Source: Methanomassiliicoccaceae archaeon (lineage in GTDB: Archaea; Thermoplasmatota; Thermoplasmata; Methanomassiliicoccales; Methanomassiliicoccaceae). Taken from it: a DNA stretch of 64,000 nucleotides. Position numbers and translations under genes: made by a program. The DNA lies in assembly GCA_040776945.1 (NCBI GenBank), contig JAXGZN010000001.1, positions 672,001 through 736,000 of the forward strand. The letters are read 5' to 3'. The stretch's first letter is position 1, and the number at the start of each line of letters is the position of its first letter. This document shows positions 8,339-24,950 of the stretch, one piece after another. The notes beneath the pieces were generated by a model. That model made no database searches and had not been told where the DNA came from. It saw only the letters and a program-made list of their open reading frames with translations.

Positions 8339-9718
8339 TCAGCAGAACCAATGGGCGCGAGGCTCGCAGGAGCGGTGGGCGACGATGGTCTTCTTCTTAG
8401 TGAACATCTGCAGCCTGCTCATCGACGAGGGGATGCCGCTCTGCTTCCACCCCTGGAAGTACTCGCCGCCGGGCAGCGTGCGGACGCACTCGTTGATCCA
8501 AACGTTGCCGACCTCGAGACGATTAGCGACGTCGAGGCCATCCTTAGGGTCTGATGTCCACACTGTCGCCCCCAGCCCGTACCTCGTGTTGTTGGCCAGG
8601 GCGATCGCTTCCTCATCATCGCGGACGGCGCGCACCGGGCACACCGGCCCGAAGGTCTCCTTTCGCACGAACTCGAGAGCGTCGTCCGTGTGCCGGAGCA
8701 CGGTCGGAGGGTAATAGAACCCAGGACCTTCAGGGATCTCGCCCCCGAACAGCAGCTCTGCGCCACGATCGACGGCATCCCGGACGACGCGGTGCACCTC
8801 ATCTCGGGCTTCCCCGCGTATCAGCGGGCCGACGTCCTCATCGAGGCTCAGGCGCCCGGCGATGCTGACCAGGCGACCCAGCAGCTCGTCGGTCACGGCC
8901 TCGTGCGCGTACACCCGCTTTATGCGCACGCACACCTGCCCCCCGCGGCTGAAGGTGCCGTAGGCGATGCCCCTGGCCGCCTGCTCGATGTCGGCGTCCT
9001 GGCGCACGATGCTGGCGTCGTTGCCCGAGAGCTCGAGGATCAGGGGCTTGATGCCGGCGTTCCTCGAGATGTCCAACCCGGTCTCGATTCCTCCGGTGAA
9101 GACGATGGCGTCGAGGTCGGAGGTGACCATCAGCTTCCCGATGTCCGCTCCCCCGACCACCGGGACGTAGAGGTCCTTGGGATAACCGGCCTCGCAGACC
9201 AGCTCGGCGATCTTCAGCCCGGACAGCGTGGACAGCTCCGACGGCTTGAACACCACGGCGTTGCCGGCGAGCAGCGCCGGAATGGCGGTGATCATCGTCT
9301 GCCAGAAGGGGAAGTTCCAAACTCCGATGTGGCCGATGACGCCGTGCGGGAGGAACGATATCGTCGCGTCGGTGGACGTCCATGATGAAGGAAGAGGATA
9401 CGGGCGGTCTCCCGTGGCCAGGTGCTCCTCGATGTAGTGATCGATCCCCGAGAGGGCGCTGTTGTACGCCCCAATCAGCGCCTTCTTTGGTATGCCGACC
9501 TCCTCGTGCATGAGGCCCACGACCTCATCGCGGCGGCGGAGGCAGACCGCTTCCAGGTCCTTGATCAGCGTGGCACGATCCTCCCGTGAGGTGCCGCGGT
9601 ACCACTCCTTCTGGCAACGCCTCGCCCGGGCCAGGGCGTCGCGGAGCTCGGCCGGTGTGGACGATGCGATCTCTCTTATTATCTGCCCCGTGCGGGGGTT
9701 GACGGAACGGACGACCAC
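8339..9718 (-). CDS. Aldehyde dehydrogenase family protein
   Basis: WNFP, GNAVVFKPSE, FTGG, LELSG, GQVC, ETFGPV. Confidence 0.92.
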   Translation of the reverse strand: MVVRSVNPRTGQIIREIASSTPAELRDALARARRCQKEWYRGTSREDRATLIKDLEAVCLRRRDEVVGLMHEEVGIPKKALIGAYNSALSGIDHYIEEHLATGDRPYPLPSSWTSTDATISFLPHGVIGHIGVWNFPFWQTMITAIPALLAGNAVVFKPSELSTLSGLKIAELVCEAGYPKDLYVPVVGGADIGKLMVTSDLDAIVFTGGIETGLDISRNAGIKPLILELSGNDASIVRQDADIEQAARGIAYGTFSRGGQVCVRIKRVYAHEAVTDELLGRLVSIAGRLSLDEDVGPLIRGEARDEVHRVVRDAVDRGAELLFGGEIPEGPGFYYPPTVLRHTDDALEFVRKETFGPVCPVRAVRDDEEAIALANNTRYGLGATVWTSDPKDGLDVANRLEVGNVWINECVRTLPGGEYFQGWKQSGIPSSMSRLQMFTKKKTIVAHRSCEPRAHWFC

Positions 9719-9803
9719 GAAGCTCTAATCCCGTGGCCGGTATTGATGCTTTGTCCGCCGGAGTCGAGCGATAGTCTCGAATCTATTCCGTTGAAGCTCT
9801 AGA

Positions 9804-9923
9804 TCACAACTCCACGACCTCCGCGCGCTTGCGGTCGATGAACCGCTTCCGCGTGCCGTTGCCGGAGCCCTTGTGAACGACCTTGACGCCCCAGGCTTTC
9901 TGCATGGTCTCCACCGACGCCAT
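9804..9923 (-). pseudogene. 3' remnant of family-A partner (putative immunity) gene
   Basis: MASVETMQKAWGVKVVHKGSGNGTRKRFIDRK aligns by eye with EAIREHWMVPVLDKGIGIGRMTKYMDGK at the C-terminus of 15039..15665. Confidence 0.55.
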
Positions 9924-9929
9924 GATCAA

Positions 9930-10122
9930 TTACGCTGGCCTGGGACCGGACTTCCGCCGCCAGCCTGGTAAGTATGGCCCCGAGGCCGGCCGCCCAGTCG
10001 ACCACTCCGTCCCAGATGTCCTCGATGATCGAGGTCAGCGGATCGAGGATAGTATCGCGGACGAGGTCGATGAGCCACGTCGCGAGCGAGGTCGTCTGCT
10101 TATTTACGATCTCGGTTCCGGC
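9930..10122 (-). pseudogene. Truncated orphan C-terminal cassette 4 of the polymorphic protein
   Basis: EIVNKQTTSLATWLIDLVRDTILDPLTSIIEDIWDGVVDW resembles the junction IVNAFQAFVTWAIEFITD...FGPFID; no start codon. Confidence 0.5.
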
Positions 10123-10131
10123 TTAAACGGA

Positions 10132-10510
10132 TCAGTAAGGCCGGTTCTTCCAGTCTCTTGGCAGCTCCGGCAGAGGACCGTGATACCTCTGGTACGCCGA
10201 TCTCATGGCCAACCCGATGTCGTAGGTCACGAGGATGGTCGATCTCTTTTTCTTCAGCCGTATTATACCTCTTCTCTTGTCCTTGCCGGTCACGGTGGTG
10301 TACTTGTTAGGAGAGACGTAGATCCACGCTATGTCTTCCCATCGGACGTCCTTTGGTTTAAAAAACGGTATTCGAGTTTCACCCCATCCTTGTCGATTCG
10401 CACTCGCAGCGGCCTTGAGACGTATTCCGTCTGTACAATAATAATTGGGACCATCAGGCTGCCGAAAAATCCGTATATCAGGAGAAGCGGGTTCGGCACT
10501 ATGATATATA
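10132..10510 (-). pseudogene. Frameshifted family-B partner membrane protein, 5' end cut by IS110
   Basis: ...GSLMVPIIIVQTEYVSRPLRVRIDKDGVKLEYRF, then a frameshift at the A-run ~10360, then KPKDVRWEDIAWIYVSP...AMRSAYQRYHG; homologous to 13474..13923. Confidence 0.65.
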
Positions 10511-10586
10511 ATTGAAAAAATGACCATCGGGCTAAAAGCGCGGCATTCGTTACCTAAAGTAGCCAAACAAAAGGAAGGAATGCCGC

Positions 10587-11593
10587 ATGAAATACTCTAG
10601 TTAGATACATAAAGATTGCACGACCGCCTGCGCGGTCAGCGCAGGCGGGAAGGCCGTGATGAGCGCCGAGGTCACCACCGACGCTGCCGGCCTCAGCGAA
10701 CTGCACGCGCGAATGAACGGTTGCGAGTACAGCGTGATGATGGAATCGAGCACCTACTCATACGTCGCCTATCGATTCTTCGAACGACTGGGCATCGAGA
10801 CGCACGTGGTCCACGCTCGTAGCTTGAAGATGATCACTGACAGCGACAAGAAGACCGACCGCTCGGACGCGGAATGGATCGGCCGCTGCCTGCGGCTGTG
10901 GAAGCTCGGCGAGATCGAGCTTTCGATGTCTTACTTTCCGACGGAGGTCGAGGCGGAGCTCAAGGACCTCTGCCGGTACAAGGAAGAGCTATCCTCCAAG
11001 CTGGGCGACGACGTGCGACGAATAAGATCGCACATGAGCCGCAATTGCCTGGAACTACCTCCACAGTTCCAGAACCTGTCGACCAGGAAGTCCAGGAACT
11101 TCATCATCGTGACATACGCGAACGATTACACCTTGGTGAAGCGAGTGAGCGGCTACGCCTCGCTGCTCATCGAGTCAGAACAAGTAGTCAAGGAGATCGA
11201 GAGCAGGGGAGCGAACGACATGAACGTCGAACTGCTTGAATCTATACCGGGCATAGGACGGCAGACCGCCGTGCAGCTGATGTCGATGATAGTGGACGTG
11301 ACCAGGTTCAAAGATCCCGAGCGGCTTTGCGCATACTTCGGCATGGTGCCTCGAGTTCGCGATTCGGGAGGCAAGGAACATCATGGCCGCATGACGACGA
11401 GGACAACATGATGCGCTCGATCATGGAACGAGTTACTTCGAGCCATATCCACTTCTGCGATTCGACGATAACCGCATACTTCGAACGCAAAGCGAAGGAG
11501 ATGGGGAACAAGAAGGCGCTCACTTCGGCAGCGAGGAAAATGCTGGTCGTGATCCACACGGTTCTGATGAGGAAAACGCCGTTCACCGCCTGA
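10587..11593 (+). pseudogene. IS110-family transposase/recombinase, with an in-frame amber at codon 6 and a frameshift at ~11400
   Basis: MKYSS*IHKDC..., MESS, KTDRSDA, ESIPGIG, AYFGMVPRVRDSGG; C-terminal AARKMLVVIHTVL lies in another frame. Confidence 0.85.
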
Positions 11594-11608
11594 GCTACCT
11601 CAGGCGGT
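11585..11608 (+). other. Perfect 10-bp hairpin over the transposase stop (accgcctgag-ctac-ctcaggcggt)
   Basis: Direct inspection; could belong to the element's non-coding RNA or be a terminator. Confidence 0.5.
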
Positions 11609-11918
11609 CTTACGTCCGATGTGCGCTCAACGAGATAAGAGGATAAGGACCGAGGACCATGCCGTCGACTGCTTTTGCGGGCCTTGAACGGATGCCGCCT
11701 TTAAAAATCATCGAGCTCAAAAGGTCCAGGCCTGGAATGTCATACTGCGGATCTTGCCGCCAAAGTAAATTAGGTTGTTCCTCGAACTCGGGAACACGCT
11801 CACGGACGAGCTTGCATAGCGTAAGCTATAAACAATGGGCATCACAATTCAGTAAAAGCCGCACTTTTAGCCTAAGTAAATCAGTGGATCGTGACAAAGG
11901 GCATCTTACGGGCCTCCC

Positions 11919-12188
11919 TTATGCGATATATATTAAGACCAGGGGATCACCGATCTGCACTTCCTTCGGGCGCCTTATAACCCCGAGGTAGGTGATTGGG
12001 ACGAGGAGCAATAGGGCAATAGCGGTGAAGAAAAAGATGCCTACCAATTGTGCCGCCCAGAAATCGGTGATGATGTACATTAACAGGCCGATGCAAAATA
12101 GGAAAATGGAGGAGAAAATCGCCAGGCCCATGAAATGGATGTCAGGGGGGTTTCTTATTTGTACCCTACTTTTCTCTGCGCCTTTCAT
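11919..12188 (-). pseudogene. Truncated family-B partner membrane protein
   Basis: Two TM helices, then YLGVIRRPKEVQI (compare EYRLKPKVVI, NYLRFPKLIDI), then a premature stop. Confidence 0.55.
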
Positions 12189-12192
12189 GCAA

Positions 12193-12663
12193 TCATCTAC
12201 TCATAATAAGTTCATCGCCAGGCAAAGTTCTCATCATCATTTTTTCATATTTCGCCTTGATGTCTGTCGCTAGTCGACTAGGGATTATATACGGATACAA
12301 CCGACCAGAGGCATACAGATGGCGCTCGTCCTTAAGTCCGATCGTTGTCTGCCTTTTCATTGATAGCTTACGAATATCTGAAAAACGAATTAAGACATCT
12401 GGCCCGACTACGAACCTCATGCAAATTTGGTTCTCCATAACAATGACAACTTTAGGCTTCAGACGATATTCCCTATAAGATGAGACGATTATTGGAGGCA
12501 CCCCGATAAACAGGGAGAGAAATATTCCACCTATGCCCCATACGCCGGCTAAAAATAGGAAAATGCCGCCAATAAGGAAACAAAGTCCAATGAGAATAAT
12601 AAAATAAAACTCAAATGGTTTTCCATTGTCGATTGAGCAAAGGCGCTCTTCCGTCTCACTCAT
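12193..12663 (-). CDS. Family-B partner membrane protein (2 TM plus PH-like domain), putative immunity protein
   Basis: ATG 2 nt after the cassette-3 stop; similar to 13474..13923 (YPY...KAKYEKMM). Confidence 0.65.
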   Translation of the reverse strand: MSETEERLCSIDNGKPFEFYFIILIGLCFLIGGIFLFLAGVWGIGGIFLSLFIGVPPIIVSSYREYRLKPKVVIVMENQICMRFVVGPDVLIRFSDIRKLSMKRQTTIGLKDERHLYASGRLYPYIIPSRLATDIKAKYEKMMMRTLPGDELIMSR

Positions 12664-12665
12664 TT

Positions 12666-13466
12666 TCAATCCCAATCACACCCCTCATATGACATCCATG
12701 CACCTATTCCACCGAATATGAGCGAGATGCCGCCCATATATGGGTCTACTACCGCTCCCGCAAGCGATATGATTAAGGATTCTATCGATATGAAGAAACC
12801 GATTATACCCATCGCAGCATCATTGGCGATGACCGAGTAGAGACCTAAAGCTAATGCGATTATGCCATCGGCTAGAATGATGCCGGACAAGATTTTTGTG
12901 GTAGAGACATAAAGCAGATCGGCAACGCCCAATATGCTAGTGAATACCCCCACGGCTGCAGCCCCCAAAGCCCAAGCGGTCTCGTCCGGAACCTGTTCGG
13001 TCCCGCCATTAGACGCGACATTGTAGGTCCAAGCTTGCCATGGCGCGACTCCATACATTGGAGTTCCCTGATCCCACTGAGCGGTAGACTGTATTCCTAA
13101 AGCATTATAAGCTATCACACCGACAATGCCCATCATCATGTAACCTACTAGGTTGGATGCTCCGAGCGTAATCACTTGGACCGATGTGCTCACGACCTTC
13201 GCAAGGACCGCTACAATCGAGAGAGCGGAATAGAACTCTCCATGAATGGCATCGGCAAGTTTGTTCGCAGTTCTTGGATCTATTGACCCAGATGTTTCCA
13301 GTTCTTCAACCACTAGGTGAGCCATGGACTGAACATGCTGGCAATATTGCATCCATTGCTCTCTAATCATATCGATGAGCGGGCTGAATACTTCTTCAAT
13401 AACGTTGTTAATGAACTCGATCGCCCACGTCACGAACGCCTGGAGAGCGTCGATGATGTCGTCGAT
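12666..13466 (-). CDS. Orphan C-terminal cassette 3 (hydrophobic multi-TM module)
   Basis: Begins *AIDDIIDALQAFVTWAIEFINN with no proper start upstream of the junction; low GC. Confidence 0.7.
   Translation of the reverse strand: MDDIIDALQAFVTWAIEFINNVIEEVFSPLIDMIREQWMQYCQHVQSMAHLVVEELETSGSIDPRTANKLADAIHGEFYSALSIVAVLAKVVSTSVQVITLGASNLVGYMMMGIVGVIAYNALGIQSTAQWDQGTPMYGVAPWQAWTYNVASNGGTEQVPDETAWALGAAAVGVFTSILGVADLLYVSTTKILSGIILADGIIALALGLYSVIANDAAMGIIGFFISIESLIISLAGAVVDPYMGGISLIFGGIGAWMSYEGCDWD
13411..13444. repeat. 34-bp junction core repeat (cassette 3)
   Basis: atgaactcgatcgcccacgtcacgaacgcctgga, identical to 14693..14726. Confidence 0.95.
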
Positions 13467-13473
13467 CGCTCAA

Positions 13474-13923
13474 CTACCGGCCTTGGTACTCCGGCGGATA
13501 GCGGCCCATGGCCTCGCGGTACTTGGCCCGGACGGCCTCGCTGATCTCGTAGCTGAGAGGATATGGACACATTTTCCCGTGGAGGAAGACGGAACCGCCC
13601 CTGGCCCACCGGCCCATGAACGTCGAGGAATTGCCGGGGTCCGAGTACACCGACTTGACCTGAGACCATCGAACCTCATTTTTCCTCGATAATGGAAATT
13701 GGAAGATGATGCCATCATCATTGATGTCGATGAGCTTTGGGAATCGGAGATAGTTCCTATCAAGGTTAGCTAAATAGAAGACAGATGGTAGGAGAATCGC
13801 GACTACCAGAGACAATAGGCCCCCTCCATCTAGATAGAAAGTCAGGCCAATGATGAGCAATATAGTGGCAATAATAAACAACCACGCCACATCCTTGGTC
13901 TGTCTCGGATTATCATATCTCAT
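13474..13923 (-). CDS. Family-B partner membrane protein (2 TM plus PH-like domain), putative immunity protein
   Basis: Starts 4 nt after the cassette-2 stop; PKLIDINDDGI...VRWSQV...YREAMGRYP. Confidence 0.7.
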   Translation of the reverse strand: MRYDNPRQTKDVAWLFIIATILLIIGLTFYLDGGGLLSLVVAILLPSVFYLANLDRNYLRFPKLIDINDDGIIFQFPLSRKNEVRWSQVKSVYSDPGNSSTFMGRWARGGSVFLHGKMCPYPLSYEISEAVRAKYREAMGRYPPEYQGR

Positions 13924-13927
13924 GTCA

Positions 13928-14790
13928 TCACTCCAGCGACTTTATAGAGCAGTAGATACCCACGCCCCCGAACAACGCCGACATGCCGGCGACGATCCTC
14001 GCCGATGGCAACGGTGTCATCCAGTGGAGACTGCCGAGTACACCAGCGGCACCGCGGACACGAAGATCGCCACCACCGAGAGGTTGAAGCTCCCGACGGC
14101 CATGGCGAGCCATCCCAGAGCGGAGCCCACGATGCTCAGCGCCAGGTAGAACGCCTCCTTCATGACCACCGCTCCGCTCAGCACCAGACCTCCGGCGCCG
14201 ACGAAGGTCCCGAGGATGCTCATGCATCCCCCGAACGCGCCCCAGGCCGTTTGCTCTTTTGACGAGGTGAAGGTCCAATCGCATAGTGACTCCAACACTA
14301 CCCTGGTCCAGGTCCTCAAGGTTTCCAGCGCATCGTCGACCGGACCGCTCAGCACCCCATCGTCCCCATTGATATATGAGAACACCTCGCTCAGTATCAG
14401 AGCAACGACCATCGGAGCGACGAACGCCACGATCATCCCGTAGACGCTGGTCACCGGGGTCAGGGCAATGAGCAGGATGTCGATTACGACCGCTATTCCC
14501 ATCAGCACCGTGAACAGCTCTCCGGTGAGCGCGCTGCCGAGAGCGCGCTGAGAGCCATCGCTGACCGTGCCGGTGCCGGAGAAGTCCAGGGCAGCCCGGT
14601 CGACCGCTGCGTTCACTCCTTCCAGATAATCGAAGATGTAGCTCTTGACGTCATCGATGAACGGCCCGAATATGTCGGTCACCAGATCGGTTATGAACTC
14701 GATCGCCCACGTCACGAACGCCTGGAACGCGTCGGCGATCTCGTTAACAGCCTGGACGAAGCTCGACGCGAGATTATGGGGCGCTGATCC
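13928..14790 (-). pseudogene. Orphan C-terminal cassette 2 (multi-TM), frameshifted near 14025
   Basis: LASSFVQAVNEIADAFQAFVTWAIEFITD...; the tail GMSALFGGVGIYCS in the next frame matches GISLIFGGIGAWMS of cassette 3. Confidence 0.7.
14693..14726. repeat. 34-bp junction core repeat (cassette 2)
   Basis: Identical to 13411..13444; 30/34 to 16409..16442. Confidence 0.95.
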
Positions 14791-14884
14791 ATGAAGACCA
14801 TCCAGTCGCAGATAGTTCTTACAAGTCGTCGATCGCTTCTCCCTTTGCTTGCCCGATTGTGCCCAGGCTCTCATTGCCTTGCTC

Positions 14885-14950
14885 ATCATTCATCGGTAGA
14901 CTCAATGGATATCGGCCCATGTGCTCTCGATACGCTTCCCTAACTACGTG
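14885..14950 (-). pseudogene. 3' remnant of family-B partner gene
   Basis: VREAYREHMGRYP versus VRAKYREAMGRYP in 13474..13923. Confidence 0.6.
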
Positions 14951-15038
14951 GTGATGGACCGCTTCATCGGAGAGTACCTCGCCTGTGCGTTCAAGAGGAG
15001 GTAGCCGTCCTTGGTGTGCCATCGATGCTTAGTCTTCA

Positions 15039-15665
15039 TTAATATGATGGCTTGCCATCCATATACTTAGTCATCCTCCCTATTCCGATCCCCTTATCCA
15101 GGACTGGGACCATCCAGTGCTCTCTGATCGCTTCGGTCAGGGTGATGATCTGGCCGGGAGGCTTGGGGCCAGAACGATACTGCTTGCCCCTCACCGTTAT
15201 CACCACGAAACCGATGGGCGCATCCTCCCAGAGAAGATCGCTGCGATTATTCACGTTCTGGCGTAGCTTGCCCCTCACGACTTCAATCAAAGTGACCTCG
15301 TCCCGGGGCACGAAACCGTCGAAGCCGAGTAAACGTTGGTACAGGAACGTATACATCTCGATGCCGTTCGACCTTAACCTCGTCTTCGTTGATGCTAGTC
15401 TCATATCACGGAAGTGATACTCACTGACCCATAGGAGAAGGACGATCCCTGAGCCTCCGCCGATAGCGGCTACATACCTCACATCTTCTCCACCGTAGAT
15501 TACGAGGTTTCCCATTAAAATGAGAATCGAAATGACACCCATTCGTATTAACCAAACGAAGGACATCACTTGAAGATGGTTTTGCAAGGTGGAGTCCAAG
15601 ACAAAGGGGGGCAATTGCTCCTCAAACAGGACCTCACCATCTGAAATACGTTTAGTTTCACGCAT
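15039..15665 (-). CDS. Family-A partner membrane protein (2 TM plus soluble domain), putative cognate immunity protein
   Basis: Start overlaps the stop of the large gene (ATGCGTGA); low GC. Confidence 0.7.
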   Translation of the reverse strand: MRETKRISDGEVLFEEQLPPFVLDSTLQNHLQVMSFVWLIRMGVISILILMGNLVIYGGEDVRYVAAIGGGSGIVLLLWVSEYHFRDMRLASTKTRLRSNGIEMYTFLYQRLLGFDGFVPRDEVTLIEVVRGKLRQNVNNRSDLLWEDAPIGFVVITVRGKQYRSGPKPPGQIITLTEAIREHWMVPVLDKGIGIGRMTKYMDGKPSY

Positions 15666-18600
15666 TCCTAGCCCTCTCAGCAGCCGTGTATAGACTGAAC
15701 GTCGAAACGCTGATATCAAATATGGCAAAGCCCAATAAGAATTTACCTACAGTCGGTAGCTTTACTGGTTTTACCAAATATATGGCGAATCCAAGTATGG
15801 ATAAAACAAATCCAATGCAACTCAGTTGCAAAGATTCCAGCGGATTCTCGACTGCCAACGACCATAGTGCTAAAGCGAAGCCGATGGTAGCAATGGCAAA
15901 TGATACGACTCCCAATGGATCGATGGCCATCAGCATCTGTATCTTTTCCGCCAAGAAATTGAAGATGGAGATGGAAAGCCCCAGGACTATTTCAATCTGG
16001 CTTGCTAGTTCGCTCCCGATGATGGTTTCCATCTGATTGCGCAGTTGATCGCCCCCGTTTATCAAACTCAATGGATTGAACCCTAATGCCGTTTGCAGAA
16101 CCGTGCTGACCATTAGCGTCAGCACCAAGGGGATGACTACCTCATTTATCAAGAATGAATATGGCATGAGCACGACGGACAGGATCATAATCGCCGCTGT
16201 TACCGCTGTAGCCACAATCATCAGGGCATCGATCATGTCAATGATGGGCGCTCCGATGGTAGCAGCCCCTTCATTCTCAGTCATACTCCCAGACTGTATG
16301 GATTGTGTTGCAACTGTAAGTAGCGATGAAATTACTCCGCAAGCTCCTGAACTCCCAATGCCGAGATTGCCTAAAACGCTCCCTACCGCCGTCTCTATTG
16401 TATCCGTGATGAAGTCGATCGCCCAGTCCACGAACGCCTGGAACGCGTTCACTATCTTCGTCACCGCCGTCTGTATGACCGATATGTAGGCGTTCGTGAT
16501 GGTGCTTATCAGCTTCACCCCGGCCTCGTACACCATCTCGGCGAGGTTGTAGAGCGTGGTGCCGATGGCGACGAGGCAGTCGAAGACGAACTCGAGGACC
16601 TCGCCGACGGTCAGATAGTCAGGCGCTTCACCTAGAGGTGACGACTGGATATTGTACGGTAACCTCGATTGGATATCGGCCGGCAGGTGGAGCAGGTACA
16701 GGTTGCTGGGCGAGATCACCACGCTGTTGCCGATCTGCGCGTTGGTCGGATCGTGCGTCAGCTTCCCTAGCAACTCTTCCGCCGCATAATTGCTCATCGT
16801 TTTCTCGAACACTGCAACGATGTGTCCTGAGCTGAACGCCTGCGAACCATCGGTCGAGTAGAACGATCCGCCGGAGAGCTCGCTCCCTGAGGGATTGGAG
16901 GTCAGCACATCGCTGAACTTTGATTCGAGCGCTAGGTAGCGAGGGACTATGATGGTGTTCACGCCGGGAGAGAAGTGCGCGCTAGATCCTTGGACAGTAA
17001 CGTACAGCATGTATACCTGCCCGTCGGCAGTATACCGGTAGTTGTTCGCGCCGATGACGTAGAGGTCGCTGTTCTCCTCGGTCGAATTGACGATGATGAG
17101 GTTGCTCTTCGGGGCGATCGCCGTCTCGACGAAGAATCCCACCTCACACTCGCTGTTCACGTTAAACCAGCCATCGCTTAGATCGCCATGTGAATAGTAC
17201 TCGGTATGTCCGTTGCTGTAGTAGAAAGTGAACGGATAATCGCAATGATTTGGGTCCGTGTCCTCCATGTCCAGCTTGATATCGTCGTATGCGGGAGGAT
17301 TGCCGGCGTTATCGGCCACCGCCATCATCACGAAACCCTTGCTCGTTCCGGTATCGTCCACCTGGATGTAATAGTTGAAGTTGAAGTACCGGTCCTCGTG
17401 CGTGTACACGTCGTACAGACGCTCGGTGGACAATGCGATCGTAGAATCGGTCACATCGTCGTAATAGGTAAGGACGAAGAAGATGTCGTGCACGTTACCC
17501 CAGTTTATGTCTTCCCACAGATTGAGGAAGTTGATGTTCACGTGCAGCATCATGTCCCCGAGATACTTGTCCACATTGTCTCGGAAGCCGTCCCCGTCGG
17601 TGTCCGCGCAGGTGGGGTCGAGAGGCTGGTTGCACGGCGTGATGCCCTCGATCTCGTCACGGTCCCAGATGCCGTCCCCGTCGGTATCATAGAGCACCGG
17701 GTTGGTGATCCACCCGTCCTCGCCGAAGCTCACCTCTTCGCCGTCCCAGATGCCGTCCCCGTCAGTATCTTTGACCAATGGGTTCGTTTTCCCCTCAAGC
17801 TGCAAGATGACGTACTGCACCTGGCCGTCCGATCCCGCGTAGTTCTGATCGGCGACCATGAACTCGAAGGTGCCTCCCTGGCGATAGAGCGAGATCGTAT
17901 AGTGCGGCGACAACGGTATGTAGGTCTCGAACACGTTCGCCCCGACATTCCATTGATCGTAGAGGCACAGGTTAGGCAAACCGGAGCCGACCTTGTACAT
18001 CCATACTTCGATGTCCTGGGCGCGGTCGGTGACGATGCCGACGTGCACCCTGACCGCGGTGATCTCCACCGACGCAGGAATGGAGGGGATGGTGATGGAC
18101 ATTATCGCACGGTCGCTCCACGAGCCGTTGGGCACTTTGTAGAACTTGTCGGTGGACCAGCTCTGCGACCATCGTTCCGCGCCGTCCATCAGGCCGTCGT
18201 CATCGGTGTCGGGGTCCCAAGGACTGGTGTGGCCGTAGATCGTTCCGAAGTATCCCTCGTCGGCGTCCTTGAGGCCGTCGGAGTCGGTATCGTCGGAGAA
18301 CGGATCGAGGTACCTATCGTTGGTCCGATCCGCTTCCATGCGATCGACCGCACCGTCGTTGTCGCTGTCGATCAGCAAGTGAAGCTCGGCGACCGACACC
18401 GAGGCGGTGCCGATCTTGAACAGGATGTTCAGCTGGGTGCCCCACATGTAATCGACGAAGGTCGAGGGATCGATGCGGAACGACGCGGTGGTCCACGAGG
18501 AACTCGCCTGAATGGTTTTCACGTCGACGAACGAAGTGCCGGTCCATTGCGATACCACGAACTGATTCTGGGAGCGATACACCAGCTCGACCTCGTGGAA

Positions 18601-19152
18601 GTTGCCGGATACAGGACCGTTCACGAAGAACAACGCGCTGCCATCGGTCGTGCTGCGGTAGGTGCGGCCTCCGTCCGAGAGGACCGAGGACCAGTGGCCG
18701 TTGTTGTAGATGTTGATGCCAGGGTTGCGGTACCGGCCGCTGTCGTCGTACACCCCGCCGACCACGGTGTACAGGTCGCACGGGCGCATGGTCACCGAAG
18801 TAACGTTAGAGATGGATGACACGAACCTCAGCCGAATGTTGTATCCCGGAGCGGAAGCGTCCGCGTCGTAGTACACGCCGCGCTGCAGGGAGATCACGGC
18901 CGAGTTGCCCCAGCGGTACAGGTTGCCGATGGTCACGTACCCATCGAAGGACAGCTGTTGTACCTCGATGTACTCCGCCGCATCGCTGTACGTGATCTCC
19001 AGCGTGAACACCATCGTCTGCACCGGGACGTTGACGAGCATCGTCGCCCCGGCGGTGCCGTTGGCCACCGTCCCGTCGAACGTCCATCCGGACTCGAACC
19101 CCACGCCGGGATTGTGGTACGAGGCCGGGGTGAAGCTGATAAGCACCATCAC
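15658..19152 (-). CDS. Large extracellular-type protein with DxDxDG Ca-binding repeats and a variable multi-TM C-terminal module (polymorphic toxin-like); probably 5'-truncated
   Basis: Six D(T/S)DxDG repeats, beta-rich domains, junction IVNAFQAFVDWAIDFIT, GC drop after the junction; no signal peptide; the ORF starts inside the inverted repeat. Confidence 0.75.
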   Translation of the reverse strand: MMVLISFTPASYHNPGVGFESGWTFDGTVANGTAGATMLVNVPVQTMVFTLEITYSDAAEYIEVQQLSFDGYVTIGNLYRWGNSAVISLQRGVYYDADASAPGYNIRLRFVSSISNVTSVTMRPCDLYTVVGGVYDDSGRYRNPGINIYNNGHWSSVLSDGGRTYRSTTDGSALFFVNGPVSGNFHEVELVYRSQNQFVVSQWTGTSFVDVKTIQASSSWTTASFRIDPSTFVDYMWGTQLNILFKIGTASVSVAELHLLIDSDNDGAVDRMEADRTNDRYLDPFSDDTDSDGLKDADEGYFGTIYGHTSPWDPDTDDDGLMDGAERWSQSWSTDKFYKVPNGSWSDRAIMSITIPSIPASVEITAVRVHVGIVTDRAQDIEVWMYKVGSGLPNLCLYDQWNVGANVFETYIPLSPHYTISLYRQGGTFEFMVADQNYAGSDGQVQYVILQLEGKTNPLVKDTDGDGIWDGEEVSFGEDGWITNPVLYDTDGDGIWDRDEIEGITPCNQPLDPTCADTDGDGFRDNVDKYLGDMMLHVNINFLNLWEDINWGNVHDIFFVLTYYDDVTDSTIALSTERLYDVYTHEDRYFNFNYYIQVDDTGTSKGFVMMAVADNAGNPPAYDDIKLDMEDTDPNHCDYPFTFYYSNGHTEYYSHGDLSDGWFNVNSECEVGFFVETAIAPKSNLIIVNSTEENSDLYVIGANNYRYTADGQVYMLYVTVQGSSAHFSPGVNTIIVPRYLALESKFSDVLTSNPSGSELSGGSFYSTDGSQAFSSGHIVAVFEKTMSNYAAEELLGKLTHDPTNAQIGNSVVISPSNLYLLHLPADIQSRLPYNIQSSPLGEAPDYLTVGEVLEFVFDCLVAIGTTLYNLAEMVYEAGVKLISTITNAYISVIQTAVTKIVNAFQAFVDWAIDFITDTIETAVGSVLGNLGIGSSGACGVISSLLTVATQSIQSGSMTENEGAATIGAPIIDMIDALMIVATAVTAAIMILSVVLMPYSFLINEVVIPLVLTLMVSTVLQTALGFNPLSLINGGDQLRNQMETIIGSELASQIEIVLGLSISIFNFLAEKIQMLMAIDPLGVVSFAIATIGFALALWSLAVENPLESLQLSCIGFVLSILGFAIYLVKPVKLPTVGKFLLGFAIFDISVSTFSLYTAAERARNA
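16429..16531. repeat. 103-bp inverted repeat, left copy
   Basis: Exact reverse complement of 19117..19219. Confidence 0.95.
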
Positions 19153-19219
19153 GAACGCCTACATATCGGTCATACAGACGGCGGTGACGAAGATAGTGAA
19201 CGCGTTCCAGGCGTTCGTG
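19117..19219. repeat. 103-bp inverted repeat, right copy, continuing into cassette-type TWAVEFFE
   Basis: Encodes YEAGVKLISTITNAYISVIQTAVTKIVNAFQAFV on the + strand. Confidence 0.95.
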
Positions 19220-19349
19220 ACGTGGGCGGTGGAGTTCTTCGAGGGGACCATTTTTAAGCTTCATGCCGACTTTCATCGATGAATTCAGAGTCCAGACATT
19301 TGGTGAAAGGGCGAGCAAATCATTTTAGCCGTCCTGGGTCTTCCTAAGG

Positions 19350-20501
19350 ATGTCCATGAAGCGCACTCCATTGTACGACGCCCATGTCGAATTAGGCGCC
19401 CGGATGGTCGAGTTCGGCGGCTGGGAGATGCCGGTCCAGTACACCAGTATCCTGGAGGAGCACCGAGCGGTCAGGGAGCGAGCGGGAATGTTCGACGTCT
19501 CCCACATGGGCGACCTGATCATCCGCGGGGCGGGAGCGGAGGACTCGCTTCGAGAGCTCCTTACCAACGACATCAAGGACCTCGCTCTGAGTAAGGGCAT
19601 CTACGCCCACATGCTGAACGAGGAAGGGAAGATCATGGACGACACCTTCACCTTCCGCGCAGGTTCTGACACCTACCTCCTGGTCCCGAACGCCTCGCAT
19701 GCCCAGCAGATCCATGAGTGGGTCCGCGACCACGTTCGAGGAGCGATCGTCACCAATGTCTCGGAGCGCGTGGCGGCCATCGCCCTGCAGGGGCCGAGAG
19801 CGCAGGAGGTGCTGCAGCGCCTCACCGACAAGGACCTGAAGAGCGTGAAGAGGCTATACAGCGATATCGTCAACCTCAAGGTCTCGTCGCCGAGCGGACC
19901 CGAGCGCTTCCTTCCCGATGTTCTAAACTTCCCCGCGCCCCTGCCCGGCACCACGCAGAGCTACGTCACCCGCACTGGCTACACCGGCGAGGATGGGTTC
20001 GAGATCCTCGTGGAGCGCGGAGCGGCGGTCGCGGTGTGGAACGCGCTGCTCGCCGCGGGCAAGGACCTCGGGCTCATGCCCTGCGGACTAGGGGCCAGGG
20101 ACCTCCTCCGCCTGGAGATGGGGTACCTGCTCTCGGGCACCGACTTCGACGGCACACAGAGCACCCTGGAGACCGGGCCTGCTTGGGCGATCAAGTGGGA
20201 CCATGCGTTCATCGGCCGGGAAGCGATGATGAAGCAGAAGGAGCGCGGCGGATATCGCAAGCTTGTTGGGCTCGAGCTCCAGAACAGGGGCATCCCCCGG
20301 CATGGCTATCCCGTCGTCGTCGGCAACCGTGAGGTCGGCATGGTGACCTCCGGTACTCTGTCACCCATCTTGCAGAAGGGCATTGCCCTCGCGTACGTGG
20401 ACGCGGAGCTCACCAAGGAGAACACCGAGCTCGCGGTGAGGATCAGGGACAATTATGTCCGTGCCATCGTGGTCAAACCGCCGTTCATCAGGAAGGGGTG
20501 A
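19350..20501 (+). CDS. gcvT: Glycine cleavage system aminomethyltransferase T
   Basis: KRTPLYDAH, FGGWEMPVQY, GMFDVSHMG, TRTGYTGEDGFE, GLGARDLLRLE. Confidence 0.93.
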   Translation: MSMKRTPLYDAHVELGARMVEFGGWEMPVQYTSILEEHRAVRERAGMFDVSHMGDLIIRGAGAEDSLRELLTNDIKDLALSKGIYAHMLNEEGKIMDDTFTFRAGSDTYLLVPNASHAQQIHEWVRDHVRGAIVTNVSERVAAIALQGPRAQEVLQRLTDKDLKSVKRLYSDIVNLKVSSPSGPERFLPDVLNFPAPLPGTTQSYVTRTGYTGEDGFEILVERGAAVAVWNALLAAGKDLGLMPCGLGARDLLRLEMGYLLSGTDFDGTQSTLETGPAWAIKWDHAFIGREAMMKQKERGGYRKLVGLELQNRGIPRHGYPVVVGNREVGMVTSGTLSPILQKGIALAYVDAELTKENTELAVRIRDNYVRAIVVKPPFIRKG

Positions 20502-20504
20502 GGG

Positions 20505-21560
20505 ATGAGGACCAAGGTCGTGGACACGCTGCAGGACCTGCTGGCCATGGACAGCGACCTGCACGCGGACATGAGCACCATCCTCAGGTTCACCCGCCGC
20601 AGACTGGAGTCCGCAGGAATGCGCGTCCGCCAGGTCGGGCCTCAGCGCTACCCGGCGCTCATCGCCACCTACGGCAAGAACGGCATGCTGTTCTCCGGGC
20701 ACCTGGACACGGTGCCGGTGGGCGACAACTGGACGATGTTCCAGGGGGAGGAGGACGGCAACCGCATCTACGGCCGCGGCACCTGCGACATGAAGGGCGC
20801 GTGCGCCGCCATGATCGAGGCCGCCGGCGAACTGGTGGACGACGACGTCCCGTTCAGCATCTGCCTCACCACCGACGAGGAGGAGCAGATGGAAGGCGTA
20901 GACGCCATCGTGAAGGAGGACATCGTGCGCAAGGCCAAGGGCGTCCTGATCATGGAGCCGACCGAGCTGGCGCCGGCGTACCGCGAGAAGGGTGTCTTCC
21001 GCTTCCGCCTGACGACACGAGGGCGCGCCGCGCACGCCAGCCAGCCGTGGCTGGGAGACGACGCGATACTCAAGATGCACTATTGCCTCGATCGGCTTCT
21101 CGACCTGGCGGAGATGTCCTCTCAGCGCTCAACGGGCATGACCGTCTGCTTCTCTACCATCCGGGGGGGCAACAAGAACAACGTGGTCTCGGACCACTGC
21201 AGCGTGGAGGTCGACATCCGGCATCCGTCCACGCAGACCGCCAATGACATCGAGGACATCATCGCGAACCGCCTGCGAGGCGAGGTGTACGAGATGGACA
21301 TCGAGTACACCCTGGGGGCGTTCGAGTCCGACCCGGATTCGGAGATCAGCCGGGAGCTGTCTAACTTTTTGGGCACCGATCCCATCGTCGTGCCCTACGC
21401 CACCGAGGCGCCGAAGTACGCGGCGGTGAACCCGCATGTGTACATCTGCGGGCCCGGCGACCCCCGCCTGGCGCACACCGTCGACGAGTACGTCGAGATA
21501 CAAGAGCTGGAGGAGGCGCACGACATGATCGTGCACCTGGCCAAGTACGTTCAGGGGTAG
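20505..21560 (+). CDS. M20 metallopeptidase (ArgE/DapE-like)
   Basis: SGHLDTVP, GRGTCDMKG, DEE, AHTVDEYV. Confidence 0.88.
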   Translation: MRTKVVDTLQDLLAMDSDLHADMSTILRFTRRRLESAGMRVRQVGPQRYPALIATYGKNGMLFSGHLDTVPVGDNWTMFQGEEDGNRIYGRGTCDMKGACAAMIEAAGELVDDDVPFSICLTTDEEEQMEGVDAIVKEDIVRKAKGVLIMEPTELAPAYREKGVFRFRLTTRGRAAHASQPWLGDDAILKMHYCLDRLLDLAEMSSQRSTGMTVCFSTIRGGNKNNVVSDHCSVEVDIRHPSTQTANDIEDIIANRLRGEVYEMDIEYTLGAFESDPDSEISRELSNFLGTDPIVVPYATEAPKYAAVNPHVYICGPGDPRLAHTVDEYVEIQELEEAHDMIVHLAKYVQG

Positions 21561-22843
21561 ACTCTGGAAACCGTCCGGGGGAACGGCACCGCGTCGCGGA
21601 TGTGCTCCAGCCCGCAGATGAACTTGACCACCCTCTCGATGCCGAGCCCGAACCCGGAGTGCGGCACCGAGCCGAAGCGGCGGAGATCGATGTACCACTG
21701 GTACGGCTCCATGCAGATGTCCTGCTCCCGCATCCTGGCGACCAGCTTGTCAAGGTCGGTCTCCCTCTCCGAGCCGCCGATGATCTCGCCAAAGCCGCCC
21801 GGAGCGAGGAGATCAGCGCAGGCGTAGGTGCGCGGGTCCTCGGGGTCCTCTTTCATGTAGAAGGCCTTGCACTCCTTAGGATAGTTCGTCACGAACACCG
21901 GAACGGTCTCCTCGGCGGTGAGCGCTCTTTCTTCGGGAGCGCCGAGGTCGCAGCCCCAGCCGATGTCGTAGCCCTGACCGCGCAGCTTATCCATTGCCTG
22001 GACGTAGGTCATGCGCTTGAACGGGGGGACGATCGCCTTCAGCGGCTCAATGTCCTTGCGCATCAGCGACAGTTCGTCGGCGGCGTTCTTGAGGACGGCC
22101 TCGACCATCGCTGTCACCATCTGCTCCTGGATCTCCATGTTGCCCCTGTTGTCCACCCACGCCTCCTCCAGCTCGAGGTGCCAATACTCGGTGAGATGCC
22201 TGGTGGTCCGCGATTTCTCGGCCCGGAAGGACGGGGTGATGGAATACACTCGGTCCAGCGAGAAGATCAGCGCCTCCAGGTACATCTGGGCGCTCTGGCT
22301 CAGGTAGGCGTCGCGGTCGAAGTACTTCAGTTTGAACAGCGTGGTCCCGCCCTCGCAGGCGTTCGTCGTCAGGATCGGCGGCGTCACCTCGGTGAAGTCA
22401 TTCTCCCTCAGCCAGTCCCTCGCGCCGGCCATAGCTGCGGCCTTGATGCGCATGACCGCCGTCTGCTCGCGGGAACGGATCCACAGGTGGCGGTTGTCGA
22501 GCAGCAGCTCCTCGCTCTGGTACTCGGTTATTGGGAAAGTGTCCGCCGGTCCCACCACGGTGAACGAGGACGCGCGAAGTTCCTTGCCCCCGGGGGCGCG
22601 CTTGTCGTCGAACAGCTTGCCTCTCACCTTGACCGACGATTCCACGGTCGCATCGTGCGCCGCCTCGAACTCCGTCTCCGGCAGGTTGCCCTTCTTCACC
22701 GTGACCTGGATGATGCCGGTGTGGTCCCGGAGGACGAGGAAAACGATCGCACCGCTGGACCGGGCCCGGTAGATCCATCCTCTTGCCTCGACCTCAGCGT
22801 CGGCAGGGGCGCTGAAAAGCCGCTTCACTGGAAGATAGGACAT
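21551..22843 (-). CDS. asnS: Asparagine--tRNA ligase
   Basis: LLDNRHLWIR, CEGGTTLF, YLSQSAQ, FRAEKSRT, GEIIGGSERE, PHSGFGLGIER. Confidence 0.93.
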   Translation of the reverse strand: MSYLPVKRLFSAPADAEVEARGWIYRARSSGAIVFLVLRDHTGIIQVTVKKGNLPETEFEAAHDATVESSVKVRGKLFDDKRAPGGKELRASSFTVVGPADTFPITEYQSEELLLDNRHLWIRSREQTAVMRIKAAAMAGARDWLRENDFTEVTPPILTTNACEGGTTLFKLKYFDRDAYLSQSAQMYLEALIFSLDRVYSITPSFRAEKSRTTRHLTEYWHLELEEAWVDNRGNMEIQEQMVTAMVEAVLKNAADELSLMRKDIEPLKAIVPPFKRMTYVQAMDKLRGQGYDIGWGCDLGAPEERALTAEETVPVFVTNYPKECKAFYMKEDPEDPRTYACADLLAPGGFGEIIGGSERETDLDKLVARMREQDICMEPYQWYIDLRRFGSVPHSGFGLGIERVVKFICGLEHIRDAVPFPRTVSRVYP

Positions 22844-22993
22844 CGGCCGTCCATCAGCGTTCAACTATCAAATCGTTTCGCCCCGCCAGTCGCTGGCATG
22901 GAGCTTGCATTATTGCCTCGCCAGGAGTAGGCCGTTCTGTGGGAGAGCAGAGGCAGCCCGATATCGTTCTGGGAGGGAACGGGATAGCAGTTC

Positions 22994-24565: not shown

Positions 24566-24637
24566 GCGGGCGTAGTCTAGTGGTTAGGACTTAAGCTTCC
24601 CAAGCTTGAAGCCCGGGTTCGAATCCCGGCGCCCGCA
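24566..24637 (+). tRNA. tRNA-Gly (CCC)
   Basis: Acceptor stem GCGGGCG/CGCCCGC, anticodon loop TTCCCAA, T-arm GGGTTCGAATCCC, upstream TATA-like ttttaat. Confidence 0.95.
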
Positions 24638-24950
24638 CACCTTATTAACATTCTCTGACTCTGCTGCAAAGCTCATCCAGTATGTTCGAGCGGATATTTT
24701 TATCCGCAATGGTAGCGAGGCGACCATGATGGCGACCAGATATGCCTGGATACGAGACTGCCATGGACCTTGGCCTATCGATCCGGACAATGAAATAGAC
24801 CGACCGAGTGAACATGATATCTAATTGTTGAACTATCTGGCCAACCTACATTTCCCTTGGAACGCAAATTTTGCAACGGTGCCCGAAACTATCCCTCCTC
24901 GTTCATAATTTAAGGATAACTGAGAAAAAACCCTACAGCCTTTCAGGGCC

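Follow-up and report, generated by a model that had tools for sequence, protein, structure and literature searches.

A junction-encoding DNA core as a probable homology patch for cassette exchange in a surface-protein locus of a Methanomassiliicoccaceae archaeon

The window analyzed here is a stretch of 64,000 nucleotides (nt) from a Methanomassiliicoccaceae archaeon (GenBank assembly GCA_040776945.1, contig JAXGZN010000001.1, positions 672,001 to 736,000 of the forward strand), and coordinates below are those of the window. It contains a truncated gene for a large surface protein and, downstream, tandem orphan cassettes, all carrying copies of a 34-bp coding core. It is probable that this core is the DNA of a junction peptide and at the same time a patch of homology for cassette exchange, with the orphans forming an archive that is decaying in this strain. 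The core would encode the junction between a conserved body and a variable multi-helix membrane tail of ~260 amino acids, and the host proteins would be giant (about 1750-3600 amino acids), signal-peptide-bearing surface proteins of Methanomassiliicoccus and related Methanomassiliicoccales. A cassette would extend from one core to the next, comprising a tail and a downstream small gene predicted to encode two transmembrane (TM) helices and a PH-like domain. The core, with the pre-core arm retained in orphans, would be the sole sequence common to all cassettes, which would be swapped through this patch by homologous recombination or gene conversion, both within arrays and between genomes. The large gene in the window would have lost its promoter and ~780 N-terminal codons through a deletion at a CGTAC microhomology beside an inverted orphan remnant.

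Script comparison of the core copies gives 34/34 identity between 13411-13444 and 14693-14726, a 30/34 match for 16409-16442 and a 31/34 match for the reverse complement of 19206-19239, exactly the values claimed in an earlier note on this DNA. The same note held that every copy is read in one codon phase, and indeed the open frame encodes A(F/L)QAFV(T/D)WA(I/V)(E/D)F in all four. Three copies are on the minus strand and one is on the plus strand, so that 3/4 are direct repeats. A search with the 34-mer allowing up to 3 mismatches returned the two identical copies (mean 0.00 in 100 dinucleotide-preserving shuffles), and a codon-degenerate core pattern retrieved all four (0 expected from 100 such shuffles). 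A fifth, decayed copy is present on the minus strand at ~10080-10100. A genome scan for more copies had been proposed in the note, and none was found outside the locus in the whole genome (2.17 Mb in 2 contigs, 99.84% complete): the DNA search and a junction protein profile each gave 4 matches, all local. The repeat observation is real, and its central interpretation was largely right. The core-bearing units and their small genes are arranged as follows.

19117..19282, plus strand: inverted orphan remnant (arm R), with a pre-core arm followed by the core (motif codons 19202-19240) and, after 17 more codons, a stop; adjoins gcvT.
16532..19116, minus strand: constant body of the large gene, 5'-truncated; the open reading frame (ORF), 19152..15658, has 1164 amino acids with TSP3-like Ca-binding repeats.
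16397..16531, minus strand: arm L, the large gene's pre-core helical region and core (16409-16442).
15658..16408, minus strand: tail 1, a variable C-terminal region of ~250 amino acids with 4-5 hydrophobic helices; guanine plus cytosine (GC) content 0.47.
15039..15665, minus strand: small partner gene 1, 208 amino acids from an ATG overlapping the tail 1 stop; two hydrophobic helices; long class.
14017..14889, minus strand: orphan cassette 2, with a short unrelated leader, the core (14693-14726) and tail 2.
13474..13923, minus strand: small partner gene 2, 149 amino acids, two TM helices and a PH-like domain; 94% identical to the copy in the related genome G002.
12666..13469, minus strand: orphan cassette 3, with the core (13411-13444) and tail 3; GC 0.49.
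12193..12675, minus strand: small partner gene 3, 160 amino acids; GC 0.41.

Comparison with relatives places the ends of shared segments at the core. Window positions 14744-13431, which hold orphan 2 with small gene 2 and the first part of orphan 3, are 95.97% identical over 1315 nt to G002:C1. The boundaries of this block lie 14 nt ahead of core 2 and 17 nt inside core 3, its flanks are unrelated, and G002 carries its tail as an in-frame fusion to another body, 32% identical to that of the window. In an all-against-all blastn comparison of the fetched loci, five more homology blocks end 15, 23, 24, 25, and 28 nt into the core; their sources are G015 C3/C4 (95% over 259 nt), G025/G030 (three times) and G002:C11 with the present genome, G000. 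Arms L and R, which match perfectly over 103 nt, likewise cease to do so mid-core, after ...TTCGTG, at the same point as the G002 block. These comparisons support the core as the place where cassettes would have been exchanged. A likely recombination site had been proposed in the earlier note; as a place of exchange it stands, on the G002 core-to-core block and the block ends within the core, but as a defined site for a dedicated recombinase it does not: breakpoints are spread over positions -14 to +28 nt relative to the start of the motif, and the window holds no tyrosine or serine recombinase gene. The distal decayed core (~10080) was also considered as a mid-core breakpoint and was rejected, the alignment with G002:C11 showing small internal deletions.

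The bodies and tails of the large proteins also differ sharply in conservation. All ten pairs of long homologues (10/10) share 52-77% identity over the 400 amino acids before the motif, and 20-33% identity or no match after it. The full-length protein P0154 has a body 77% identical to that of the window, the most similar one, and its tail has ~22% identity to window tail 1 and 62% and 58% identity to orphans in two other genera. Tail types do not follow body phylogeny, a further line of evidence for recombination at the core. The tails nevertheless align with one another end to end at 20-29% identity and would thus make up one diverged multi-helix membrane domain family; they extend 207-362 amino acids beyond the motif, and orphans have 7-210 codons upstream of it. 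No homologue of tail 3 was found among longer proteins, which is weak evidence. In the Atlas search, the best score for the tail was 0.80, which is chance level.

Large-protein matches were obtained in 15 of the 41 related genomes searched (this genome included), distributed over 7 of 15 genera. In a single-protein search that returned one relative, the closest was from Methanomassiliicoccus sp., and the database entries for homologues are named “hypothetical protein,” from Methanomassiliicoccus and from metagenome-assembled genomes (MAGs) of Methanomethylophilaceae. Full-length homologues have 1751-2815 amino acids in the relatives and up to 3607 in a representative library, and begin with an N-terminal hydrophobic, signal-like segment. 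At E<=1e-3, a junction profile run against 1.84 billion representatives matched 278 proteins; at E<=1e-10 there were 66. Of these 66, seven are 1438-3607 amino acids long, with the junction 165-260 amino acids from the C-terminus; the other 59 have fewer than 1010 amino acids, mostly 280-500, with the junction near the N-terminus, a pattern expected of what may be orphans or fragments. Pfam searches of nine locus ORFs, the 1751-amino-acid homologue and the G002 protein gave only the IS110 domains and, for the large window protein, a sub-threshold match to TSP3_bac. The 1751-amino-acid homologue matched no Pfam family at E<=0.05, and a PDB sequence search with it gave 0 matches.

What carries out the exchange? 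A short conserved DNA stands at every segment boundary, in one phase and with one copy inverted, its sequence GCGTTC...GCGTTCGTG...TGGGCGATCGA is conserved across genera, and an IS110-family (DEDD) recombinase fragment lies within the array. All of this could suit the crossover site of a dedicated recombinase that switches tails by deletion or inversion, in the manner of a shufflon or of Hin/Gin/Cin. However, no match to the tyrosine or serine recombinase families (PF00589, PF00239) was obtained in the window, the nearest tyrosine recombinase match is ~89 kb away on the same contig, and in five relatives no recombinase scored over the family cut-off within 10 kb of the cassette loci. The IS110 gene is itself incomplete and lies where the array is decayed, and the 3/4 copies in direct orientation would lead to deletion of cassettes rather than shuffling. 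Site-specific recombination is therefore very unlikely here. The scattered breakpoints, together with the lack of a nearby recombinase gene, are better explained by homologous recombination or gene conversion than by a site-specific system, and the exchange would be performed by the homologous recombination machinery of the host.

The large gene of the window is itself incomplete. No alignment of a homologue to the large ORF comes closer to its N-terminus than residue 8-12, and the frames of the homologues reach roughly 500-1900 amino acids further upstream. Arm R is antisense to the ~12 codons with which the ORF opens. Relative to the 1751-amino-acid G010 protein, the window protein covers residues ~785 onward, starting at YHNPGV, and it has no signal peptide and no promoter-proximal part. 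Relocation of the missing head was considered and rejected in favor of deletion, since the N-terminal 780 amino acids of the G010 homologue were not found elsewhere in the genome. The joint between body and arm R has a 5-nt microhomology, CGTAC. Arms L and R form an inverted repeat (16397-16531 and 19117-19251) of 135 nt that is 91% complementary and holds the large-gene core and the inverted core; its perfect part covers 103 nt, 16429-16531 being the reverse complement of 19117-19219. The earlier note had suggested that a crossover would fuse the carrier in frame to a new tail. The frames agree with this, but the carrier is headless in this strain, with ~780 codons lost from its 5' end.

A metagenome contig of 1129 nt (L029), from a near-identical strain, shows how the locus looked before the deletion. 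It is identical to the window over all the gcvT coding sequence present on it (~600 nt) and has the same remnant R with its short tail. Upstream of the arm there follow ~250 nt of AT-rich spacer and then, on the opposite strand, an intact gene start, MVSVTVKLFAVACV; spacer and start are 85% identical to the upstream region and start of the G010 gene. The L029 arm differs from window arm R by a 36-nt patch and one further base, at which window arm R equals arm L. The intact start and the patch difference place both events after the divergence of the two strains: a ~2.6 kb deletion would have removed the promoter and N-terminus, and an exchange between the inverted arms, ending before mid-core, would have altered arm R. 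The metagenome scan with the core pattern gave 8 loci, of which six were rejected as unrelated genes with a chance FQAFVQWALV or FQAFVAWALV. The inverted remnant of L029 and G010 (L029:289-456, plus strand; L017:5443-5682, minus strand) begins with its own ATG (MVY...), giving an ORF of 56-62 amino acids divergent from the promoter of the big gene, either a small protein or a relic.

Two further readings concern the arms. Short-read assembly graphs break at arm repeats and many contigs of relatives end at the junction, so the inverted arm and truncated gene might be a mis-join at a repeat in a MAG. The joint is, however, bridged with 0 differences by independent contigs from the runs of two studies (X2, 16502-19146; X5, 18179-19146), which argues that it is not an assembly artefact, and it has a clean 5-nt microhomology. 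These contigs do not settle the orientation of the 2.6-kb segment, but an artefact at the joint is scarcely credible. The arms could instead act as a switch that inverts the whole gene independently of a recombinase, flipping promoter and body and so toggling between the multi-helix tail, with its PH-like partner, and the 17-residue stub. In G010 and L029 alike, an inverted remnant is separated from the gene start by ~190-250 nt of intergenic DNA, the window arms are perfect over 103 nt, and the change of the arm between two gcvT-identical strains shows that inverted arms have recently exchanged sequence. In intact-gene strains, the direct-repeat cores would then load new tails, and such a switch, if real, would represent phase and antigenic-type variation in a methanogen-related archaeon by means of a 34-135-bp coding homology patch. 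Yet the G010 arms are only 54% identical as protein and hold no DNA repeat of at least 30 nt, no inverted arm was present at the other long genes examined, the flanked segment in the window is without promoter or start, and contigs are unable to tell the two orientations apart. An inversion switch is unlikely on this balance.

How far could protein constraint explain the identity of the core? At sites with the same residue in the three window cassettes, the same codon is used in 24/27 cases in the core vs. 47/127 in the tails (Fisher p = 7e-7, the pairs not being independent). This is the comparison of synonymous sites in core and flanks that the earlier note had proposed, and it came out as anticipated there, with a far higher same-codon share in the core. 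The excess requires recombination or gene conversion in addition to protein constraint. The note had attributed the DNA identity to more than protein constraint; the codons agree with this, but the core is primarily a protein motif shared across the family. Constraint and recombination act together at the core.

Several observations weigh against a role of the core in exchange, or limit it. The motif, A-F-x-A-F-V-x-W-A-(I/V)-(E/D)-F, is strongly conserved as protein across the order (23 instances in 11 genomes, across families). Its codons are also kept between genomes, even across families, with a same-codon share of 0.75 vs. 0.88 within genomes. Among six long homologues the core share is 64/83 = 0.77 vs. 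0.48 for the rest, and values of 0.70-0.79 also occur in other conserved 13-codon windows of the body. Constraint and codon bias may therefore account for part of the DNA identity. Constraint alone would mean that the peptide AFQAFVTWAIEF, which lies within one long predicted helix (in a low-confidence model), is essential, e.g., within a helix that runs into the membrane domain, and that preferred GC-rich codons are reused at it, with no role in recombination. This does not account for a G002 core-to-core block that sits on a different body, for the five more block ends inside the core, for arm identity that ends mid-core, for the arm patch that differs between two otherwise identical strains or for the codon excess over the tails, and we regard constraint as sole cause as improbable.

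Other points on the same side concern the exchange itself and the tails. Between the body core and the orphan cores, which match at 30/34 positions, the longest perfect match is 18 nt, short for efficient homologous recombination, so that exchange in this strain would be rare. With its body gene headless, this strain has no functional switching. The tails are homologous to each other, unlike the unrelated toxin domains of classical polymorphic toxins, and the tail model is poor, all-helical and of too low confidence for a fold search (predicted local distance difference test, pLDDT, 58.8). Assembled Logan contigs from 4 runs end precisely at the cores (13415-13440, 14697-14722, 16429-16531, and 19146/19190) and are unable to span rearranged joints.

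The locus was listed in 20 rows of sequencing runs from 7 studies, all of them digester or sludge metagenomes. Contig joints listed in gcvT were rejected, being from other organisms. In run X2, a low-depth contig (3.66) joins 18299 to 11225 with 39 foreign letters between, and may represent another organism or a rearranged variant. Contigs of five relatives (e.g., G008:C18, G008:C3, G022:C45, G030:C2, and G021:C2) end inside or at the junction arm of the big gene. Short-read assemblies regularly break at the junction repeat, which probably leaves cassette arrays under-assembled in MAGs.

Homologous exchange through the core would move a tail together with its small gene. A small ORF predicted to encode two helices directly follows 18/20 tails; of the remaining two, one runs off the locus end and one is fused in frame. 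The fusion, L023:1779-3050 (G030:C3), joins a tail ORF to a C-terminus that is homologous to the separate small ORF L022:7976-8461, a naturally occurring fusion that argues for a joint role of the two. Modeling of the small protein (pLDDT 86.9) gives two TM helices followed by a beta-sandwich with a C-terminal helix as its cap, a layout like that of membrane-anchored bacterial-type PH (bPH) domain proteins. Among PDB folds, PH or PH-like domains make up nearly all of its best matches, none of them reaching E<=0.001 (best 0.022), and Pfam gave 0 matches. None of its 30 nearest Atlas clusters has a common Pfam family; the nearest clusters that do are bPH_6 (47%) and PH_40 (97%), at scores of 0.93-0.94 that often arise by chance, and are a lead only.

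Co-folding of tail 2 with small protein 2 scored 0.58 (runs 0.61, 0.58, and 0.00), the best of 3 controls scoring 0.00. The mark used is reached by 58/80 solved complexes and 2/110 mismatched pairs, counts that hold only roughly for the custom alignments used here, and scores of up to 0.60 include only 7/80 solved complexes and both passing mismatches. Contact agreement between the tail 2 runs was at least 0% and the pLDDT of the partner at least 63. The co-folding models are thus a weak indication that tail 2 and small protein 2 may pair. The two proteins could form a toxin/immunity-like or lock-and-key pair.

The cassettes of this genome amount to an archive in decay. Compared with its 96%-identical G002:C1 copy (L014; window 14017-14050), orphan 2 has lost 1 nt and reaches a stop ~31 codons early, and the matching tail ORF in G002 continues until 7 nt from the small gene's ATG. 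In orphan 3 a stop interrupts the frame 7 codons ahead of the motif, and the sequence upstream of the core offers no start codon. Beyond small gene 3 the array continues with more decayed parts, as follows.

11922..12200, minus strand: further small partner gene, an N-terminal fragment, found with a profile of the partner alignment (E 2.3e-9).
10656..11411 (with 11327-11593), plus strand: insertion sequence (IS) 110-family (DEDD) transposase fragment (PF01548, 2.7e-12; PF02371, 3e-18).
10135..10596, minus strand: small-partner pseudogene, frameshifted, two frames matching two halves of the partner profile.
9807..10122, minus strand: oldest cassette remnant, with a decayed core, ~47 tail codons, a ~1.16 kb internal deletion and the 3' end of a partner gene.

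The IS110-family fragment has 251 amino acids and a premature end, and interrupts the distal end of the array among decayed cassettes. The oldest remnant is orthologous to the last cassette of G002:C11, and the same flanking gene lies beside both; in the window this last cassette adjoins an aldehyde dehydrogenase gene. With the most distal cassette the most decayed, the order of the array would fit sequential displacement. The whole forms a low-GC island at 10000-19000, with 0.45-0.61 per kb vs. ~0.63-0.65 around it; tails and small genes have a GC content of 0.41-0.61 and the flanks 0.63-0.64. That the cassettes also differ in GC from one another suggests that they may have separate origins.

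An M20 peptidase gene and an aldehyde dehydrogenase gene flank the island together with gcvT (window 8339-22864). These two flanking genes are adjacent in the complete genome G009 (G009:C1, L020 2811-6695), and the G009 cassettes are ~2.5 kb further on, beside an Orc1/Cdc6-like gene. The sole tRNA in the window is tRNA-Gly(CCC) at 24566-24638 on the plus strand. An Rfam search of 9500-20000 gave 0 matches.

In bacteria, polymorphic contact-dependent toxin loci that carry orphan cassettes have been studied well. To our knowledge, such loci are known in archaea almost only from computational surveys; a 2019 survey by Makarova et al. reportedly predicts polymorphic, cassette-bearing conflict systems in archaea. 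A full-text search pairing Methanomassiliicoccales with polymorphic toxin returned no paper in the library searched, and an earlier listing in the Makarova survey is possible. Methanomassiliicoccales are methyl-reducing methanogens of digesters and guts. The present locus is a concrete, searchable example from this order, with a junction motif, a 34-bp coding core and a core-to-core unit of a tail and a two-TM, PH-like protein. It offers comparative evidence of exchange between genomes, and strain-level variation (intact vs. headless gene, converted arms) in otherwise identical backgrounds. Two ideas become testable with it, that membrane-active polymorphic tails act in archaeal kin discrimination or competition, and that short coding homology patches suffice for cassette switching by archaeal homologous recombination.

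How does this locus relate to known switching and polymorphic systems? Invertible tail-fibre and pilin segments, such as the Gin/G segment of phage Mu and the R64 shufflon, swap C-termini in frame at short conserved sequences, and have a dedicated recombinase beside the segment and inverted sites throughout. One core copy is inverted in the present locus as well, but no recombinase is present and 3/4 sites are direct repeats. It is not a shufflon: there is no adjacent recombinase and no fixed crossover point, and the sites are mostly direct.

Closer parallels are found in contact-dependent growth inhibition (CDI). In the parts of the study of orphan cdiA-CT/cdiI modules consulted, the homology between orphan modules extends from one VENN-encoding sequence as far as the following one (Poole et al., 2011, PMC3150448). 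As described in those parts, these systems and the present locus have in common a large surface protein with a conserved body, a variable C-terminus and a short boundary peptide-coding sequence; tandem modules of tail and small gene that lack their own start and have variable upstream homology; inter-strain homology that runs from motif to motif; IS elements within the arrays; and a proposed exchange by recombination at the motif (PMC3150448). There is no sequence relationship, however, and Pfam finds no DUF638/VENN, haemagglutinin repeats or other CDI family. The host is an archaeon without an outer membrane and without a CdiB partner, the tails appear to be one diverged multi-helix membrane family and the partner is a predicted two-TM, PH-like protein.

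The logic of toxin-immunity cassettes in Rhs and other polymorphic toxins is similar in the portions of Zhang et al. (2012, PMC3482391) drawn on here: a constant 5' body is followed by 3' cassettes of tail and partner, a single recombination at the 3' tip imports both, and older partners are strung downstream. The present locus differs in having no RHS/YD repeats and no PxxxxDPxGL motif, and toxicity of its tails is only putative. Sequential displacement of type VI secretion system (T6SS) effector-immunity modules in Vibrio cholerae, as far as the consulted part of that study goes, also leaves older modules distal and degraded (PMC5361080), but the machinery and organisms are different, and the order proposed here comes from decay and not from phylogeny. 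Neither CdiA/CdiB (no DUF638/VENN or haemagglutinin repeats by Pfam) nor Rhs/YD (no such Pfam matches, and a different boundary motif) can claim the large protein as a member. The organization is that of polymorphic toxin-like systems, with an exported body and variable tail, a boundary motif, a partner gene, orphans and junction-bounded exchange, and its promoter-less orphans share with the main gene only the junction, with or without some upstream sequence. Thus the locus is a member of neither the CdiA nor the Rhs family, but it works like their orphan arrays.

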